DNA of 64,000 nt from Escherichia coli (lineage in GTDB: Bacteria; Pseudomonadota; Gammaproteobacteria; Enterobacterales; Enterobacteriaceae), in the NCBI RefSeq assembly GCF_050920415.1, contig NZ_CP169309.1. The stretch is one strand, 5' to 3'. The notes below the pieces were generated by a model. The model did not search any database and was not told the origin of the DNA. It worked only from the letters and a program-made list of their open reading frames with translations. The translations under genes were made by a program, and so were the position numbers. Position 1 is the stretch's first letter; every line of letters begins with the position of its first letter. Positions 35,834 to 46,039 of this stretch are shown here, piece after piece.

Positions 35834-35904
35834 AGCCTCGTGAGCGGGACGGTCGCAAGGTCGTTCCGCTCCACTTCACTGAACGGCAATCCGAGGGTGT
35901 GGAT

Positions 35905-37269
35905 ATGATTAGTGCATTCGATATTTTCAAAATTGGGATTGGACCCTCCAGTTCGCATACCGTGGGGCCGATGAATGCCGGAAAAAGTTTTATTGATCGG
36001 CTGGAAAATAGCGGCTTATTAACCGCGACGAGCCATATTATGGTCGATCTGTACGGGTCGTTGTCACTGACGGGCAAAGGCCATGCCACGGATGTCGCCA
36101 TCATCATGGGACTAGCAGGAAACAGTCCGCAGGATGTTGTTATTGATGAGATCCCTGCATTTATTGAGTTAGTGACGCGCAGCGGGCGGTTGCCGGTGGC
36201 TTCTGGGGCGCATGTTGTTGATTTTCCTGTAGCAAAGAACATTGTTTTCCATCCTGAAATGTTGCCTCGTCATGAGAACGGGATGCGGATTACTGCCTGG
36301 AATGGGCCGAAAGAGCTATTAAGCAAAACTTACTACTCAGTCGGTGGCGGATTTATCGTTGAAGAAGAACACTTCGGTCTGTCGCACGCTGTCGAAACCC
36401 TCGTACCTTACGATTTTCACTCAGCAGGTGAACTGCTGAAAATGTGTGATTACAACGGCCTGTCTATTTCTGGCCTAATGATGCACAACGAGCTGGCGCT
36501 GCGCAGCAAAGCGGAAATTGATGCCGGGTTTGCCCGTATCTGGCAAGTGATGCACGACGGCATTGAACGCGGGATGAATACCGAAGGCGTGCTGCCAGGA
36601 CCGCTTAATGTGCCTCGTCGTGCCGTTGCGTTGCGTCGCCAGCTGGTTTCCAGCGATAACATCTCTAACGATCCGATGAACGTCATCGACTGGATCAACA
36701 TGTACGCGCTGGCAGTGAGTGAAGAAAACGCAGCCGGTGGGCGCGTAGTAACAGCGCCGACCAATGGGGCGTGCGGCATTATTCCGGCTGTGCTGGCTTA
36801 TTATGATAAGTTCCGTCGCCCAGTAAATGAGCGGTCGATTGCCCGCTATCTACTGGCAGCGGGGGCTATTGGCGCGCTGTATAAAATGAACGCTTCCATC
36901 TCTGGCGCGGAAGTCGGCTGTCAGGGGGAAATTGGCGTGGCCTGTTCAATGGCGGCGGCAGGGTTAACTGAACTACTGGGCGGCAGTCCGGCGCAGGTAT
37001 GCAATGCGGCGGAAATTGCGATGGAGCATAACCTTGGGCTGACCTGCGATCCGGTTGCCGGACAGGTACAAATCCCGTGCATTGAACGTAATGCCATTAA
37101 TGCCGTGAAAGCAGTAAACGCTGCGCGGATGGCGATGCGCCGCACCTCGGCACCGCGTGTTTCACTCGATAAAGTGATCGAGACGATGTATGAAACCGGC
37201 AAAGATATGAACGATAAATACCGCGAAACATCACGCGGAGGACTGGCCATTAAAGTGGTCTGCGGTTGA
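35905..37269 (+). CDS. tdcG: L-serine dehydratase TdcG (Fe-S type)
   Basis: ORF 35899..37269 trimmed to MISAFDIFKIGIGPSSSHT. Confidence 0.9.
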   Translation: MISAFDIFKIGIGPSSSHTVGPMNAGKSFIDRLENSGLLTATSHIMVDLYGSLSLTGKGHATDVAIIMGLAGNSPQDVVIDEIPAFIELVTRSGRLPVASGAHVVDFPVAKNIVFHPEMLPRHENGMRITAWNGPKELLSKTYYSVGGGFIVEEEHFGLSHAVETLVPYDFHSAGELLKMCDYNGLSISGLMMHNELALRSKAEIDAGFARIWQVMHDGIERGMNTEGVLPGPLNVPRRAVALRRQLVSSDNISNDPMNVIDWINMYALAVSEENAAGGRVVTAPTNGACGIIPAVLAYYDKFRRPVNERSIARYLLAAGAIGALYKMNASISGAEVGCQGEIGVACSMAAAGLTELLGGSPAQVCNAAEIAMEHNLGLTCDPVAGQVQIPCIERNAINAVKAVNAARMAMRRTSAPRVSLDKVIETMYETGKDMNDKYRETSRGGLAIKVVCG

Positions 37270-37293: not shown

Positions 37294-37319
37294 GGTGCAC
37301 AAATGTGCACCTTTTTTTT
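37294..37319 (+). terminator. Rho-independent terminator after tdcG
   Basis: GGTGCACAAATGTGCACC hairpin followed by T8. Confidence 0.85.
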
Positions 37320-40532: not shown

Positions 40533-41234
40533 CTAGACAGGCAAATCTATCAGCAAAGCGCGCAGTGGGGAATCGGCAACCAGCGTAATGTTAGCCTCGT
40601 CACGAATAAACGCCCCATCACCGCAGGTCAGCACCGCTTTCTCTTCATGATGCGTAAGCGCATGAAATTGCCCGTGAATCGATTGCAAATACGCGCGTGG
40701 CCCATGCAACTGGAAATTCGCACTTTCGCCTTTGTCTAGCACGATATGATGCAGCCACACTTGCTGGCGCAACTGCAGGCTTCCCATCGCCCCCTCTGGC
40801 GAGGCGATTAATTGCTGCTTGCCCATATCAAGCGCCAGTTTTTGAATCAGCGGATTCTCTCGCTGCGGGCAGGCATCCAGCCAAAGCTGCATCCGTGTTA
40901 ACGGTTTGTCTTTGCTGAGATTGTGTTCGCTATAGCTGATACCCGGCTGGGTAGAGAGCAGCAACGCTTCACCTGCGTAGGCCTGAATATGATTGCCTTC
41001 GCTGTCGCGATACTCAGCTTCTCCATCCAGAATCACATTTAAAATATCGACTTTGGGATAGGTTCGTGGCTGAAAGGCGGCACCTGGGGCCAGAACTTCC
41101 TGGTTAAGCACACGCAGGGAGGCATAACCTAACAATTTCGGGTCGAAGTAGTGTCCAAAGGAAAAAGTATACCGGGCCTGCAACCATCCGTAGTCTGCTT
41201 GTCCACACTGCCTGGCAGTTCGGGTAGTAATCAT
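40533..41234 (-). CDS. yhaK: Pirin-like bicupin protein YhaK
   Basis: 233-aa ORF divergent from yhaJ. Confidence 0.88.
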   Translation of the reverse strand: MITTRTARQCGQADYGWLQARYTFSFGHYFDPKLLGYASLRVLNQEVLAPGAAFQPRTYPKVDILNVILDGEAEYRDSEGNHIQAYAGEALLLSTQPGISYSEHNLSKDKPLTRMQLWLDACPQRENPLIQKLALDMGKQQLIASPEGAMGSLQLRQQVWLHHIVLDKGESANFQLHGPRAYLQSIHGQFHALTHHEEKAVLTCGDGAFIRDEANITLVADSPLRALLIDLPV

Positions 41235-41338
41235 AATTCTTGACCTCTCTTTACTTCCTTTTATGGTAAGGGGCTGGACGCTACATTGTTAGCCAGATAT
41301 TCTGCCCGGTATGTTCAAATTTCCTGAATGAGAACGAA

Positions 41339-42235
41339 ATGGCCAAAGAAAGGGCATTAACGCTGGAAGCACTACGGGTTATGGATGCGATCGATCGCCG
41401 GGGCAGTTTTGCGGCGGCGGCGGATGAGCTGGGACGCGTGCCTTCCGCACTTAGCTACACCATGCAAAAACTGGAAGAAGAGCTGGATGTGGTGTTGTTT
41501 GACCGCTCGGGCCATCGCACCAAATTCACCAATGTCGGGCGAATGTTGCTGGAGCGAGGGCGCGTTTTGCTGGAAGCCGCAGATAAACTGACTACCGATG
41601 CGGAAGCCCTCGCGCGCGGTTGGGAAACGCATCTCACCATTGTGACTGAGGCGCTGGTACCGACACCCGCCTTTTTCCCGTTAATCGACAAATTGGCGGC
41701 AAAAGCCAATACCCAACTGGCAATCATCACTGAAGTGCTGGCAGGGGCGTGGGAACGGCTGGAGCAGGGGCGGGCGGATATTGTTATCGCGCCGGATATG
41801 CATTTTCGCTCCTCGTCGGAGATCAACTCGCGCAAACTCTATACCTTAATGAACGTCTATGTTGCCGCGCCAGATCACCCGATTCATCAAGAGCCAGAAC
41901 CGCTCTCTGAAGTGACGCGTGTGAAATATCGTGGTATTGCGGTGGCGGATACCGCTCGTGAGCGCCCGGTATTGACCGTACAGCTGCTGGACAAACAGCC
42001 GCGCTTAACGGTGAGTACAATTGAAGATAAACGTCAGGCGTTACTGGCGGGGCTTGGCGTGGCGACGATGCCGTATCCGATGGTTGAAAAAGATATTGCG
42101 GAAGGACGGTTGCGTGTCGTCAGCCCGGAATCGACCAGCGAGATCGATATTATTATGGCCTGGCGTCGTGACAGTATGGGGGAAGCGAAATCCTGGTGTC
42201 TGCGGGAAATACCCAAACTTTTTAGCGGAAAATAA
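41339..42235 (+). CDS. yhaJ: LysR-family transcriptional regulator YhaJ
   Basis: 298-aa ORF with N-terminal LysR HTH. Confidence 0.88.
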   Translation: MAKERALTLEALRVMDAIDRRGSFAAAADELGRVPSALSYTMQKLEEELDVVLFDRSGHRTKFTNVGRMLLERGRVLLEAADKLTTDAEALARGWETHLTIVTEALVPTPAFFPLIDKLAAKANTQLAIITEVLAGAWERLEQGRADIVIAPDMHFRSSSEINSRKLYTLMNVYVAAPDHPIHQEPEPLSEVTRVKYRGIAVADTARERPVLTVQLLDKQPRLTVSTIEDKRQALLAGLGVATMPYPMVEKDIAEGRLRVVSPESTSEIDIIMAWRRDSMGEAKSWCLREIPKLFSGK

Positions 42236-42285
42236 TATTTGTTATTTTTAATAAAAAGGGGCGAAATATCGCCCCAATTCTAAGA

Positions 42286-42642
42286 TTAATTTGAACCAAA
42301 CTTCGGATCGTTTCCGTAACGATTGCTGCCAGAATTGCCTTCTAAACAGGCAAATACAAACAGAACTAACCAGCCAATGACCGGTACCAGATAGAGAAGC
42401 GCCCACGCACCTGAACGGTCAGTATCGTGCAGACGACGAACGCACAGAGCAATGACCGGAATGATTGTTGCTGCCAGGTAAATGAGAGAAAGGAATGGAA
42501 ACTCTAAACCTAAAATCAATTGAATGACATTGATAATAGCGCCGACGATGGCGTTAATCAGAGTAAACATCCAGTACTCTTTACGACGTGCACGACCAGA
42601 GAAACCAACATAATTTTTTAATACGGCTAAATACCACTGCAT
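42286..42642 (-). CDS. yhaI: Inner membrane protein YhaI (DUF805)
   Basis: 118-aa ORF; paralogous to yhaH (shared YLKVLKNYVGF..GRARRKEYWMF motif). Confidence 0.85.
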   Translation of the reverse strand: MQWYLAVLKNYVGFSGRARRKEYWMFTLINAIVGAIINVIQLILGLEFPFLSLIYLAATIIPVIALCVRRLHDTDRSGAWALLYLVPVIGWLVLFVFACLEGNSGSNRYGNDPKFGSN

Positions 42643-42883
42643 AAAAACATCCCTTTAATTAAAAGTTGCGAAAGTCTATTCCGGGGATGGAGTAAATGCT
42701 ATTCGTATCTTTCTTTTTCGGATGTTATAAAGGTTTTGATATTTAAGATAAATACATGGCCGTTTTTTATATGTAATTTATATAACGACATTGAAATAAT
42801 TTAAATAAACATTAGTAGATTATTTATTCATCAACATGATGATAAAAGCCGGATGAGTCAGACATCCGGCGAGGAGATTTGTT

Positions 42884-43249
42884 TTAAGGTTCCAGTTTTG
42901 GATCTGGTCCAAAGCGGTTTTCGCCTGGCGTACCCGCCTGACAGTTAAAGACGATGATAATAAGCCAGCCGATAAACGGGATTAAGAACAACAGTGCCCA
43001 CCATGCCGAGCGGTCGGTGTCGTGCAGGCGGCGGAACTGAACTGCCCACCATGGTAAAAACACCAGAATACCGTAGATTGTCGTCAGGATGCCTTCGCCA
43101 CCGGCACGTTGCCAGCCTAACATTTTATCCAGTAGCCCCAGCACGAACGTAAAGATGATGTTGACCAGAATAAACATCCAGTACTCTTTGCGCCGCGCAC
43201 GACCCCGGAAACCGACATAATTTTTTAGTACTTTCAGATACCAGTCCAT
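42884..43249 (-). CDS. yhaH: Inner membrane protein YhaH (DUF805)
   Basis: ORF 42884..43270 trimmed to MDWYLKVLKNY... Confidence 0.85.
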   Translation of the reverse strand: MDWYLKVLKNYVGFRGRARRKEYWMFILVNIIFTFVLGLLDKMLGWQRAGGEGILTTIYGILVFLPWWAVQFRRLHDTDRSAWWALLFLIPFIGWLIIIVFNCQAGTPGENRFGPDPKLEP

Positions 43250-43380
43250 TTTTGCCTCAATTTTGCTCAATCACTTGTTTTTAAAGCAGCAAATTAAGAA
43301 TAGACGTGAATGAAATGGCAGTAAATATTATCTCGATGAATTAATAAGGCGCTGTGAAGGATAAGGGCAAGCGCAAAATT

Positions 43381-43490
43381 GCCAGATGCGCTACGCTTAT
43401 CTGGCCTGCGCGGTCATTGCAATATATTGAATATACAATGTTTTGTAGATCAGATAAGGCGTTCACGCCGCATCCGACATGAACAACACG
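43381..43490. repeat. REP/BIME element
   Basis: GCCAGATGCGCTACGCTTATCTGGCCTGCG and GATAAGGCGTTCACGCCGCATCCGACA REP units. Confidence 0.85.
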
Positions 43491-43532
43491 CACTTAGCTA
43501 ATTATCAGAGGCACCTCGTAAGGTGCTTTTTT

Positions 43533-44519
43533 TTAACCGAAGCGAACATCTCGTCCGTGCGGTTCATCGAGATCCTGCCACGGACCAATTGAAATAATCC
43601 CCGTAGGGTTGATGGTCTTATGGCTGCGGAAGTAGTGATTACGGATGTGAGCGAAATTGACGGTTTCGGCAATCCCTGGCATCTGGTAGATATCGCGCAG
43701 GAAGCCGTACAAGTTAAGGTAATCGCTGATACGGTGCTTATCGCACTTGAAGTGGGTGACATACACCGGATCAAAACGCACCAGTGTGGTCCACAGGCGA
43801 ATATCGGCTTCGGTTAGCTGGTTGCCGGTCAGGTAACGATGCTGACCTAAAATCTGTTCCAGCCGCGCCAGCGATTCAAACACTTTCACCACTGCCTCGT
43901 CGTAGGCTTGCTGGCTGGTGGCAAAACCGGCTTTATACACGCCATTGTTAACGGTGTCGTAAATCCAGCCGTTAAGTTCGTCAATTTTCGGTTGCAGGGC
44001 TGGTGGGTAGTAATCTCCAGCTTTCGCACCCAGCGCATCAAACGCGGTATTGAACATGCGTATGATTTCTGCTGATTCGTTGCTGACGATGGTGTGGTTC
44101 TTTTTGTCCCACAGTACGGGAACAGTAACTCGTCCGCTGTAGTGTGGATCGGCGTGGAGATAAAGCTGATACAGAAATTCATGTTGATAGAGCGTGTCGC
44201 CGGTTGCTCCCGGAAAACTGTCATCAAAGGTCCAGCCGTTTTCCAGCATCAGCGGGTTCACTACGGAAACGGAAATAAACGGTTCCAGTCCTTTGAGCTT
44301 ACGCATGATCAGTGTGCGGTGCGCCCACGGGCAGGCGAGTGAAACATAGAGATGATAACGATCTTTCTCTGCGGCAAAACCGCCTTTGCCAGTGGGGCCT
44401 GGCGCGCCATCGGCAGTGAGCCAGTTACGAAATGCGGAAGCTGAACGTTGAAATTTACCGCCGGTGGATTTGGTATCGTACCAGGTGTCATGCCAGACGC
44501 CGTCAATCAGTTGACCCAT
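43533..44519 (-). CDS. yqjG: Glutathionyl-hydroquinone reductase YqjG (Xi-class GST)
   Basis: ORF 43533..44702 trimmed to MGQLIDGVWHDTWYD with GGAGG RBS; the upstream in-frame extension runs through REP sequence. Confidence 0.9.
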   Translation of the reverse strand: MGQLIDGVWHDTWYDTKSTGGKFQRSASAFRNWLTADGAPGPTGKGGFAAEKDRYHLYVSLACPWAHRTLIMRKLKGLEPFISVSVVNPLMLENGWTFDDSFPGATGDTLYQHEFLYQLYLHADPHYSGRVTVPVLWDKKNHTIVSNESAEIIRMFNTAFDALGAKAGDYYPPALQPKIDELNGWIYDTVNNGVYKAGFATSQQAYDEAVVKVFESLARLEQILGQHRYLTGNQLTEADIRLWTTLVRFDPVYVTHFKCDKHRISDYLNLYGFLRDIYQMPGIAETVNFAHIRNHYFRSHKTINPTGIISIGPWQDLDEPHGRDVRFG

Positions 44520-44540
44520 TTTTCTCTCCTCCAATAGCAA

Positions 44541-44565
44541 AAACGAGGAGCGTTTCTCCTCGTTT
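44541..44565 (-). terminator. Hairpin with T-tract (minus strand) between the REP cluster and the yqjG RBS
   Basis: AAACGAGGAG-N5-CTCCTCGTTT stem-loop. Confidence 0.5.
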
Positions 44566-44587
44566 GAGACTGATGGCAAACGCAAAA

Positions 44588-44690
44588 CTGCCTGATGCGC
44601 TATGCTTATCAGGCCTACGAGGTTTCTGCAATGTATTGAATTTGCATGTTTTTGTAGGCCGGATAAGGCGTTCACGCCGCATCCGGCATG
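44588..44690. repeat. REP/BIME element
   Basis: CTGATGCGCTATGCTTATCAGGCCTAC and GTAGGCCGGATAAGGCGTTCACGCCGCATCCGGCA. Confidence 0.85.
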
Positions 44691-44716
44691 AACAACGCGC
44701 ACTTTGTCAACAATCT

Positions 44717-44746
44717 GAAACGAGGAGTGTTCCCCCTCGTTTTTTA
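44717..44746. terminator. Hairpin with flanking A- and T-tracts downstream of yqjF (possibly bidirectional)
   Basis: GAAACGAGGAGTGTTCCCCCTCGTTTTTT. Confidence 0.5.
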
Positions 44747-44766
44747 TCGTTAAGTATAGCGCGTAC

Positions 44767-45159
44767 TTACCACTTTTTATTCAACAGACGGTCGATGCTA
44801 TACGCGCCCGGACCGGTAATCGCCAGCAGCAGGAATCCGCCAGAAATAGTCAGGTTTTTCATAAACATCAGCGAGTTCATGCCTTCTGCAAAATTGCTGT
44901 GAAATAAAAATGCCGTCAGCAGCGTAAAGCCCGCAGTAAACAGGGCAGTGGTACGTGTCAGGAAACCGAACAGGATTGCCAGACCACCACCAAACTCAAG
45001 CAGAATCACCAGTGGCAACATAAAGCCAGGGACACCCATCGCTTCCATATATTGTTGCGTACCCGCGTAGCCAGTAATTTTTCCCCAACCTGCCGTAATA
45101 AACAGAATCGGCATTAAAATGCGTGCGACCAGTACCCCAACATCTTCTAATTTTTTCAT
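44767..45159 (-). CDS. yqjF: DoxX-family inner membrane protein YqjF
   Basis: ORF 44767..45249 trimmed to MKKLEDVGVLVARILMP... Confidence 0.85.
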   Translation of the reverse strand: MKKLEDVGVLVARILMPILFITAGWGKITGYAGTQQYMEAMGVPGFMLPLVILLEFGGGLAILFGFLTRTTALFTAGFTLLTAFLFHSNFAEGMNSLMFMKNLTISGGFLLLAITGPGAYSIDRLLNKKW

Positions 45160-45316
45160 CTTACTCTCCACTGCGCCGCTCAGGCTGCTGATTGTTTTTT
45201 TGTGCAAGGGCGCGGTATTAGCGTCGTTGCTTTCGATGGAGAGAATCATAAACGTGGCGAAGCGTGATTGTTAGCAAGGAAAACTGTCAAATATTTTCAA
45301 AAAATTTGAGGAATAA

Positions 45317-45335
45317 GGCCGGAATGTCTCCGGCC
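45317..45335 (-). terminator. Stem-loop downstream of yqjK
   Basis: GGCCGGA-ATGTC-TCCGGCC hairpin followed by a T-rich tract on the minus strand. Confidence 0.5.
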
Positions 45336-45345
45336 AGAGAGGAAG

Positions 45346-45645
45346 TTAACCGCGAAGCTGTTGTTGCTTGAGGGTTGTTTTCACCAGACGCCAGGCGCTC
45401 CATACACCAAAACCGCGTCTGGCCCAGCGGACCAGCATATTGGGATGACGAATCGTCCAGATAGCCATCACACTACTGCCAACCAGCGCCCAGGAGCGCA
45501 GACTCAGCAGCATATTCCAGCGACGATCATAAGCGCCTGTCGCCTCCAGCCATTCACGACGACTGGCGGAAAGATCCAGCCGTTGTTGCTGGATCTGGCT
45601 AAGCAGTTGCGCCTTACGTCGTTCACGTTCGACTTTACTGCTCAC
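45346..45645 (-). CDS. yqjK: Uncharacterized protein YqjK
   Basis: ORF 45346..45783 trimmed to GTG start at 45643-45645 (VSSKVERERRKAQ...) with GGAGG RBS; overlaps the yqjE stop. Confidence 0.75.
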   Translation of the reverse strand: MSSKVERERRKAQLLSQIQQQRLDLSASRREWLEATGAYDRRWNMLLSLRSWALVGSSVMAIWTIRHPNMLVRWARRGFGVWSAWRLVKTTLKQQQLRG

Positions 45646-46039
45646 GGGACTCCTCCTCGAGCAGTTGCCGATCGTTTGCCAGCTCATGGCGCGTATGGCG
45701 CAGTAAGGTGGATTTACGCGATTTACGTAACGTCCAGATACCGCCAATGAGTGCCAGTAGCAGCAACACCACGGTGGTGGCAATCATCGCATTCAGGCGA
45801 TATTGCGGATCAACCGCCCAGATAATCAGCACCATCAGGCTCATAAGACCAAATGCAGCGAAAAGCATCGTCAGGCCCAGCATCAGTAAAAGCTGAAAGA
45901 GATTGGCTTTTTCCTCTTCCAGCTCCACCACCGCCAGCCGCAGACGTGTCTCCACCATTTCAACCATGATGGAAACAATTCGCTGCCCGATGCCCAGAAC
46001 GCTTTTACCGGGCCCTTGCGCGTGATGAGTGTCCGCCAT
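45635..46039 (-). CDS. yqjE: Inner membrane protein YqjE (DUF1469)
   Basis: ORF 45635..46108 trimmed to MADTHHAQGPGKSVLG... Confidence 0.85.
   Translation of the reverse strand: MADTHHAQGPGKSVLGIGQRIVSIMVEMVETRLRLAVVELEEEKANLFQLLLMLGLTMLFAAFGLMSLMVLIIWAVDPQYRLNAMIATTVVLLLLALIGGIWTLRKSRKSTLLRHTRHELANDRQLLEEESREQ

Follow-up and report, generated by a model that had tools for sequence, protein, structure and literature searches.

A hairpin at the end of Escherichia coli yqjG resembles an antisense terminator and is probably the gene's own 3' stem-loop, split from its tail by a BIME

Which transcript owns a terminator-like hairpin that sits at the end of a gene but carries its run of T on the opposite strand? 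The question arises in a 64,000-nt stretch of an Escherichia coli genome (contig NZ_CP169309.1 of RefSeq assembly GCF_050920415.1; hereafter the window), in which an earlier note had described a hairpin followed by eight T that abuts the stop codon of the minus-strand gene yqjG and comes after a REP cluster. That description is confirmed in sequence and coordinates, and the arrangement is non-random against shuffled sequence. The element is of a known kind, an unannotated gene-end hairpin of a familiar type. Here, we set out its anatomy, its orthologues, its interruption by a BIME and its scores on each strand, and conclude that the hairpin is, with reasonable probability, the 3'-end stem-loop of the yqjG transcript, split by the BIME and reversed in apparent polarity by an A-run.

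Gene coordinates (Table 1) follow the RefSeq annotation of a 100%-identical genome (strain MFDS1022581), and a 501-bp query across the yqjG-yhaH spacer has 92% identity to K-12-derived strains. The spacer is 283 bp long with the hairpin at its yqjG end; beyond yhaH lie yhaI, also on the minus strand, and yhaJ, the nearest plus-strand gene. The sequence of the inferred yhaH promoter is kept across genera in the locus comparison. An operon table (PMC10667835, Table S7) places a boundary at K-12 3252262, which corresponds to window position ~43291, with an exuR-yqjF unit ending at 3251006 and yhaH-yhaI as a separate operon from 3252262, and a Salmonella yhaH reporter fusion starts at -43 relative to the AUG (PMC5137417). 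The operon start and the fusion thus agree with the inferred promoter, and, given that yhaH-yhaI starts its own operon there, yqjG transcription is not recorded as running into yhaH.

Table 1 Features of the yqjG-yhaH region, in window coordinates
Feature	Position	Strand	Basis or detail
yhaH	42884-43249	-	
Inferred yhaH promoter	43291..43325	-	-35 TTTACT 43325..43320, 17-nt spacer, -10 TATTCT 43302..43297, start near 43291
Decayed second hairpin copy TCCTTCACAGCGCC, then ancestral U-rich tail TTATTAATTCA	43337..43361	-	MAFFT alignment
BIME-1/RIP-like unit, two inverted REPs and conserved end motifs	43362..43509	-	Alignments
Species-consensus 7-bp stem positions	43510..43527	both	Allele comparison
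Hairpin GCACC-TCGTAA-GGTGC, GCACCTCGTAAGGTGC	43511..43526	both	6 bp including inner T-A pair
T8 tract (species consensus T7)	43527..43534	+	Sequence
yqjG stop codon TAA	43533..43535	-	Shares last two T of the tract
yqjG CDS, glutathionyl-hydroquinone reductase, 328 aa	43533..44519	-	RefSeq annotation, identical genome
yqjF	44767-45159	-	

On the plus strand the element has the form of an intrinsic terminator: a GC-rich stem of 6-7 bp, where about 5-14 bp is expected, a 4-nt loop, where 3-8 nt is expected, and 7-8 T directly 3' of it (T8 in the window, T7 in K-12). Like such terminators it is placed directly after a gene's stop codon. The loop, CGTA in the plus-strand reading, is UACG in the yqjG mRNA, in which the T-tract appears as A8, formed by the AA of the stop codon and the stop-to-stem spacer. 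The plus-strand RNA folds with a minimum free energy of -12.4 kcal/mol (z = -3.8), equalled by 1 of 200 shuffles, and the isolated hairpin has an energy of -7.7 kcal/mol in the window and -11.0 in K-12. With both strands of the 64-kb window counted, three sites have a hairpin (stem of at least 5 bp with at least 3 GC) that directly abuts at least T7; 100 dinucleotide shuffles gave 0.5 such sites on average and 3 at most. Consensus terminator scans of the window and of K-12 and a first custom scan all missed the site because greedy stem extension, pairing AGAG with CUUU/UUUU, uses up the T-tract; the miss is an artefact of that extension. The hairpin is single-copy, with a median of one place per E. 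coli genome, and is not itself a REP: it lacks the REP consensus, and the Rfam matches to REP families span 43366-43484, outside the hairpin.

The two strands differ strongly in score. With a discriminant (d) of the d'Aubenton-Carafa 1990 type, calculated with ViennaRNA energies and meant for comparison only, the antisense direction scores +34 in the window and +40 in K-12, next to +17 to +52 for the gene-end terminators of the same window, and the sense direction scores -28 and -6, respectively. The sense tail in E. coli (CTCTGATAATTAG / CUCUGAUAAUU) is poor. The element is not bidirectional, given that A8 is present and the sense-side U-tract is absent. What sets it apart from ordinary intrinsic terminators is that its T-run is only antisense to the preceding gene, and also that the downstream gene is co-directional in E. 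coli, so that no convergent transcript is known on which it could act.

The orthologous loci tell which gene the hairpin goes with. Among yqjG loci from 80 Enterobacteriaceae species, one representative each, a GC-closed hairpin of at least 5 bp lies within 11 nt of the yqjG stop, usually at 5-8 nt, in 71. These species carry 59 distinct hairpin sequences in which pairing is kept, with clear double changes (GGGCATC/GATGCCC versus GGGAATC/GATTCCC and GGACATC/GATGTCC) and further stem types (GGCACC/GGTGCC, GGCGTCC/GGACGCC, GGCCCCC/GGGGGCC and GGGCGCG/CGCGCCC). The support for covariation is drawn from the per-species hairpin calls and explicit comparison of stems; for 43 orthologous 3' regions aligned with MAFFT, RNAalifold recovered only 5 pairs, the 3' arms being misregistered, and was left aside. 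The compensatory stem changes between genera show that pairing has long been under purifying selection. The hairpin stays with yqjG whatever lies downstream, be it the yhaH promoter, REPs or a convergent yhaJ, and has the position and the compensatory changes of a conserved sense terminator of yqjG. The orthologues in Enterobacter, Lelliottia, Yokenella, Pluralibacter and Trabulsiella carry T5-T7 on the yqjG-sense side and are textbook sense or bidirectional terminators. As the hairpin accompanies the yqjG stop in 71 of 80 species, with a sense-side T-tract in 35, we identify it as the yqjG 3' hairpin. The comparison thus bears out in part the second proposal of the earlier note, a 3' structure on the yqjG mRNA that may stabilize it.

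Across the 71 species the discriminant is positive in the sense direction only in 23, in both directions in 12, in the antisense direction only in 3 and in neither in 33. The three antisense-only species are two Escherichia species and Phytobacter massiliensis. Family polarity thus favors the sense strand, and E. coli is an outlier. A true bidirectional form is found in Trabulsiella guamensis (d +40.7 and +33.9) and, judged by flanking runs, in Pluralibacter gergoviae. The stems themselves give no such signal: in the 80 species G.U pairs leave a mean dG of -15.60 for sense versus -15.66 for antisense, and in 48 of 79 cases the antisense fold has the greater stability (sign test p = 0.07), so that sense is not favored and neither RNA is singled out as the one under selection.

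In E. coli the sense-side U-tract is missing because a BIME, a pair of REPs, has split the stem from its tail, a point that goes beyond the earlier note, which had mentioned the REP cluster only as a neighbor. The BIME (roughly 150 bp) adjoins the stem on its 3' side, as read in the yqjG-sense direction, and is missing at all non-Escherichia loci; its REP inverted arms, at 43380-43390 and 43469-43479, are just left of the hairpin. On its far side, just upstream of the yhaH promoter, the ancestral tail is found at 43337-43347, next to a decayed second hairpin copy. In the MAFFT alignment, the single hairpin and tail of Citrobacter, Salmonella and Pseudocitrobacter (for example GGCACCCTTCGCGGTGCC-TTATTAATTCACC) align with 43337-43361 and not with the E. 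coli hairpin, leaving a gap of ~170 columns in which only Escherichia has sequence, namely the proximal hairpin with the REP pair. A duplication in this spacer is read from a distal copy that is decayed, with about 11-13 of 18-20 positions matching by eye, which weighs against that reading. The proximal hairpin of E. albertii (GGCACCCTTCGCGGTGCC) recurs unchanged in a Citrobacter, and the distal copy of E. albertii (ACGCACCTTCACAGCACC) has lost its complementarity, and in all Escherichia examined the distal copy is decayed and the proximal one intact. Given that the hairpin is present in genera without the BIME, it pre-dates the BIME. The simplest reading of these alignments would be that the BIME arrived directly behind the stem and that the hairpin was duplicated in the process, after which the yqjG-side copy was kept and the other decayed.

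The antisense T-run has a separate and more recent origin. The stop-to-stem spacer is TTTACACA or TTTCA in outgroups, CCACA, ACAAA or TAAAA in other Escherichia and AAAAA in E. coli, where it makes A7 together with the AA of the TAA. As the all-A spacer is specific to E. coli, the antisense-facing T-tract is a derived trait of this species on an old stem. Across the genus the antisense tails grow stronger, from TGTGGTTA, TTTGTCTA, TTTGTTTA and TTTTACTA to TTTTTTTA.

Within E. coli, the exact 66-mer that surrounds the hairpin in the window, with T8, occurs in 1 of 5,426 complete genomes, which is the source strain. T8 is strain-specific, again beyond what the earlier note had seen, and results from a private C-to-T change at 43527. 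The K-12 form, GGCACCTCGTAAGGTGCC with T7 (GGCACCT-CGTA-AGGTGCC then T7), is found exactly in 4,539 of the 5,426 genomes (84%) and with one flanking SNP in a further 238, so that the species-form hairpin with T7 is exact in at least 4,777 (about 88%). In K-12 and these about 88% of genomes, 43510/43527 is a G-C pair; with T at 43527, the window strain has G.U here in the plus-strand RNA and a mismatched A.C in the yqjG mRNA. The C is absent from O157:H7 EDL933 (GGTGC followed by T7), and an O145 strain has AGGTACC, which keeps full pairing on the yqjG-sense RNA only. T7 or T8 is present in all eight inspected E. coli alleles. The spacer around the hairpin has 92-97% identity between strains, and the adjacent REP region is variable, with REP variation and a 10-bp indel. 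Judged by these alleles, the hairpin element is stable within E. coli despite the variable spacer around it.

Some of these observations could also be those of a functionless relic, in which the stem is slowly decaying, the A-run arose by drift and the yqjG 3' end is made wholly by REPs and Rho. The poor sense tail (d -28 to -6), the 33 of 71 species with a positive discriminant in neither direction and the alleles that weaken the stem for one strand in the window strain, O157 and O145 would all suit such a history, as would the description of REPs in 3'UTRs as partly Rho-dependent terminators and stabilizers in a preprint (bioRxiv 10.64898/2026.03.23.713779). However, a relic is hard to square with a proximal copy that has remained intact next to its decaying distal duplicate throughout the Escherichia examined, with a 66-mer that is identical in 84% of genomes next to a variable REP region, or with the compensatory stem changes across genera, and we give this explanation little credence.

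A more active role for the antisense side would require plus-strand transcription, which finds no support in the scans and tables that follow. Consensus promoter scans of the window and of K-12 gave no plus-strand promoter upstream of the hairpin, and in a permissive plus-strand search the best candidates had 7-9 of 12 matches and off-optimal spacers. A -10-like AAGAAT (43296-43301) overlaps the yhaH -10 on the other strand with a 1-bp offset. Overlapping -10 elements with this offset are a geometry reported for bidirectional promoters, and we treat AAGAAT as a lead only for possible divergent transcription from the yhaH promoter region. On the RNA side, an Rfam scan of 41000-46000 with E-values up to 10 placed no RNA family on the hairpin and gave weak REP-derived matches only (naRNA4, ES036 and Ysr224), and the K-12 annotation has no ncRNA at the yqjG-yhaH site. 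The tables of Adams et al. 2021 contain no Rho-termination region near K-12 32519xx-32522xx and no yqjG/yhaH entry, yqjG having probably been too weakly expressed under the conditions of that study; the SMRT-Cappable-seq tables contain no yqjG/yhaH transcript end or unit, and the RIL-seq-based sRNA prediction tables no candidate sRNA at yqjG/yhaH. A literature search returned no paper in which yqjG of E. coli is named alongside yhaH or in connection with antisense RNA. The first proposal of the earlier note, an intrinsic terminator for plus-strand transcription, hence stands as far as sequence fit and discriminant are concerned, but finds no promoter, RNA family, annotation or listed 3' end on its side in these sources.

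Readthrough from yhaJ was considered as a source of plus-strand transcription and is weakened by a yhaJ 3' end listed at K-12 3253273 (window 42280), 5 nt past the gene's own hairpin. The yhaJ hairpin has its T-run on the other strand only, facing yhaI, yet it marks the listed yhaJ 3' end. It is a local precedent for a stem that lacks a T-run on its own side and still marks a listed 3' end.

The strongest antisense case is that of an intrinsic terminator dedicated to the antisense direction, which E. coli would have evolved under selection to halt real plus-strand transcription before it enters yqjG, with that transcription either divergent from the yhaH promoter region or starting within or beside the BIME. 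The antisense scores of +34 to +40 are above those of every other species, including Trabulsiella guamensis (+33.9), in which yhaJ is convergent, T7 is nearly invariant in E. coli, and both this near-fixation and the strengthening tails in the genus could reflect selection rather than drift. The stop would fall exactly at the yqjG stop codon with no overlap of the coding sequence, and the AAGAAT at the yhaH -10 has the bidirectional-promoter-like geometry. Against this, none of the plus-strand promoter candidates passes the threshold in the window or in K-12 and their spacers are poor, species without the BIME share the yhaH promoter yet mostly have no antisense terminator, and neither an antisense RNA nor a 3' end is found in the Adams 2021, SMRT-Cappable-seq or RIL-seq tables. 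We consider selection for such a terminator unlikely. In a related scenario, which we hold to be distinctly improbable, the BIME insertion (with a ~25-bp hairpin duplication, of which the yqjF-yqjG spacer has another example) and the A7 spacer would have switched the polarity of the terminator. A plus-strand RNA that includes the REPs and starts divergently in the yhaH promoter region would then end at the old stem, which would serve as an insulator or close an unrecognised RNA; if this were true, one-sided or reversed terminators would arise repeatedly through insertion of REP/BIME elements at terminator hairpins.

Hfq-binding sRNAs classically end in a hairpin followed by at least seven U. 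The plus-strand hairpin shares this arrangement and its location is intergenic, and it could therefore be the terminator of an unannotated, REP-containing plus-strand sRNA of roughly 100-230 nt that ends in an Hfq-type hairpin with U7/8. Unlike such sRNAs, the locus has no convincing promoter, no conserved body, no annotation and no interaction entries: Rfam gives only the weak REP-family matches, and the putative body is the most variable part of the spacer (REP variation and the 10-bp indel). From the parts expected of a small RNA gene, namely its own promoter, a conserved body and a terminator, only a terminator-like end is present, and a gene of this kind was rejected as very unlikely.

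We return to the hairpin as the 3' stem-loop of yqjG, for which a parallel exists in E. coli. Rho-dependent transcripts of this species end just past stable stem-loops without U-tails, and these stem-loops, found at steady-state 3' ends, block PNPase and RNase II (Dar & Sorek 2018, PMC6061677). On the yqjG mRNA the hairpin is likewise a stable stem-loop at the end of a coding region without a U-rich stretch, and in structure and tail it would pass for a protective stem of a Rho-dependent 3' end; such a role would further call for Rho-dependent termination downstream and for exonucleases that trim back to the stem. The terminating ribosome represses terminators that lie only a few bp beyond a stop codon (PMC4824070), which weakens a sense-terminator role and leaves a protective role unaffected. 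With its poor tail and this ribosome effect, the hairpin is unlikely to be an efficient sense terminator. As in other 3'UTRs with REP/BIME elements, the hairpin has such an element next to it, being immediately upstream of the BIME, and differs from it in being single-copy, older and free of the REP consensus; the two probably work together in shaping the yqjG 3' end.

The proposed course of events is as follows. The hairpin has orthologues elsewhere in the Enterobacteriaceae that are often canonical sense intrinsic terminators. In the Escherichia lineage a BIME came to lie immediately behind the stem, apparently duplicating the hairpin; an intact stem stayed by yqjG, and the U-rich tail ended up about 170 nt away, close to the yhaH promoter on its upstream side. 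The stop-to-stem spacer of 5 nt then turned all-A in E. coli, as a result of which the opposite strand reads as a canonical hairpin with U7 (U8 in the window strain). The element may now act as a barrier in both directions. To the yqjG mRNA it would give a 3' stem-loop that has no tail, keeps 3'-exonucleases out and perhaps causes some weak termination, and transcription proper would end at the REPs or past them. The opposite strand has all the sequence features required of an intrinsic terminator, and the element would be competent to stop polymerase coming from the REP/yhaH-promoter side exactly at the yqjG stop codon, with predicted release before the coding region. We infer the activities on both strands from sequence, and the antisense competence would be a by-product and not a selected function.

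The neighboring yqjF-yqjG spacer has a similar arrangement in a cleaner form. In all outgroups and in Escherichia sp. MOD1-EC7003 it holds one A5-6/hairpin/T5-6 terminator, an empty site, and in E. coli and Escherichia sp. E1V33 the same type of BIME lies between two copies of that hairpin, which are identical at 22 of 26 positions. Here the U-tail has stayed with the distal copy (d +24 versus +4.6) and the A-run with the proximal one. Two BIMEs that each lie between duplicated terminator hairpins are the most interesting by-product of this analysis. The IS200/IS605 family is described as making no target repeats (PMC3333891), and a model of REP mobility of this type does not predict BIMEs flanked by duplicated terminator hairpins. 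Paired hairpin copies around BIMEs in two adjacent spacers, together with an empty site that a sister lineage within Escherichia has kept, may be informative about the way in which BIMEs insert.

Little is at stake for the locus itself: at most, the element shields yqjG, a gene of quinone detoxification, from antisense transcription and shapes the 3' end of its mRNA. For the annotation of terminators, greedy stem extension into A/T flanks hides exactly such elements from scanners, and calls of orientation from a single genome can mislead, when a comparative series reveals which gene owns the hairpin. More generally, a REP/BIME insertion can part a terminator stem from its U-tract and leave an apparent, and maybe active, terminator on the wrong strand.

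The same BIME-1/RIP-like unit of about 150 bp, with its pair of inverted REPs, is present in both spacers around yqjG, as seen in a comparison of window positions 44541-44745 (yqjF-yqjG spacer) and 43337-43527 (yqjG-yhaH spacer) with the loci L003-L006 and outgroups from other Enterobacteriaceae. A copy of the local terminator hairpin, about 25 bp long, flanks each unit on either side, and in the yqjF-yqjG spacer the two copies are identical at 22 of 26 positions. The outgroups and Escherichia sp. MOD1-EC7003 have an empty site with one hairpin, and E. albertii and strain E69 carry other REP inserts at the same hairpin. The long duplications of the hairpin target around these BIMEs are not predicted by the IS200/IS605-type (RAYT) model, under which, as described, insertion generates no target repeats (PMC3333891).

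Within the yqjF-yqjG BIME, the Rfam family ES036 (CssrF) is matched at 38.4 bits, barely over the gathering score of 37.6. The match falls in the linker separating the two REPs and extends into the second, distal one; resemblance to BIME/REP sequence is therefore its probable source, not a distinct sRNA gene. The other BIME, at its end facing yhaH, lacks 10 bp here that are found in K-12 and E. albertii (GTCATCAGTCTTAGCGCG vs CCCTTA), and Escherichia sp. E1V33 lacks them too. The yqjG-yhaH spacer as a whole has 92-97% identity between strains and is much more variable than the yqjG hairpin.

Features in and around the yqjG region and elsewhere in the window (d, terminator discriminant, for comparative use only)
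Feature	Position	Strand	Sequence	d
Distal yqjF terminator copy	within 44519-44565	minus	AAACGAGGAG-AAACG-CTCCTCGTTTTT	
ES036 match	44611-44651	minus		
10 bp missing from BIME end	43362-43371			
yhaJ/yhaI convergent hairpin	42258-42275		GGGGCGAAATATCGCCCC; T-run on yhaI side only (TTTTTATT)	
Hairpin beyond ORF 35899-37269	37294-37319	plus	GGTGCACAAATGTGCACC then T8	+52
yhaH -10	43302..43297	minus	TATTCT	
Opposing -10-like motif	43296-43301	plus	AAGAAT	

The distal yqjF terminator copy, at which the exuR-yqjF unit ends in a published operon table (K-12 3251006; PMC10667835), stops about 21 nt ahead of the yqjG ATG. An SD-like GAGGAG in its 5' arm is complementary to a CTCCTC in the 3' arm. With the real yqjG SD, GGAGGAG, located 10 nt downstream, either of the two could pair with the 3' arm. 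This candidate switch may link termination to yqjG translation; the minimum-free-energy fold of the region (-17.3 kcal/mol, z = -2.0) retains the terminator form.

The yhaJ/yhaI hairpin offers a nearby case in which a one-sided terminator marks the 3' ends of both strands; its yhaJ-side tail reads AATTCTAAG, and the listed yhaJ 3' end (K-12 3253273) falls 5 nt beyond the stem. The plus-strand hairpin with d +52, one of just three hairpin+T7 sites in the window, begins 25 nt past the end of a plus-strand ORF and is an ordinary, sense-oriented terminator.

At the inferred yhaH promoter, the -10 is overlapped by a plus-strand -10-like motif, offset by 1 bp. Overlapping opposite-strand -10s with this offset are the geometry described for bidirectional promoters. 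If a plus-strand start lies near 43308, the RNA would be about 227 nt long, with its 3' end at the T8 tract beside the yqjG stop codon.
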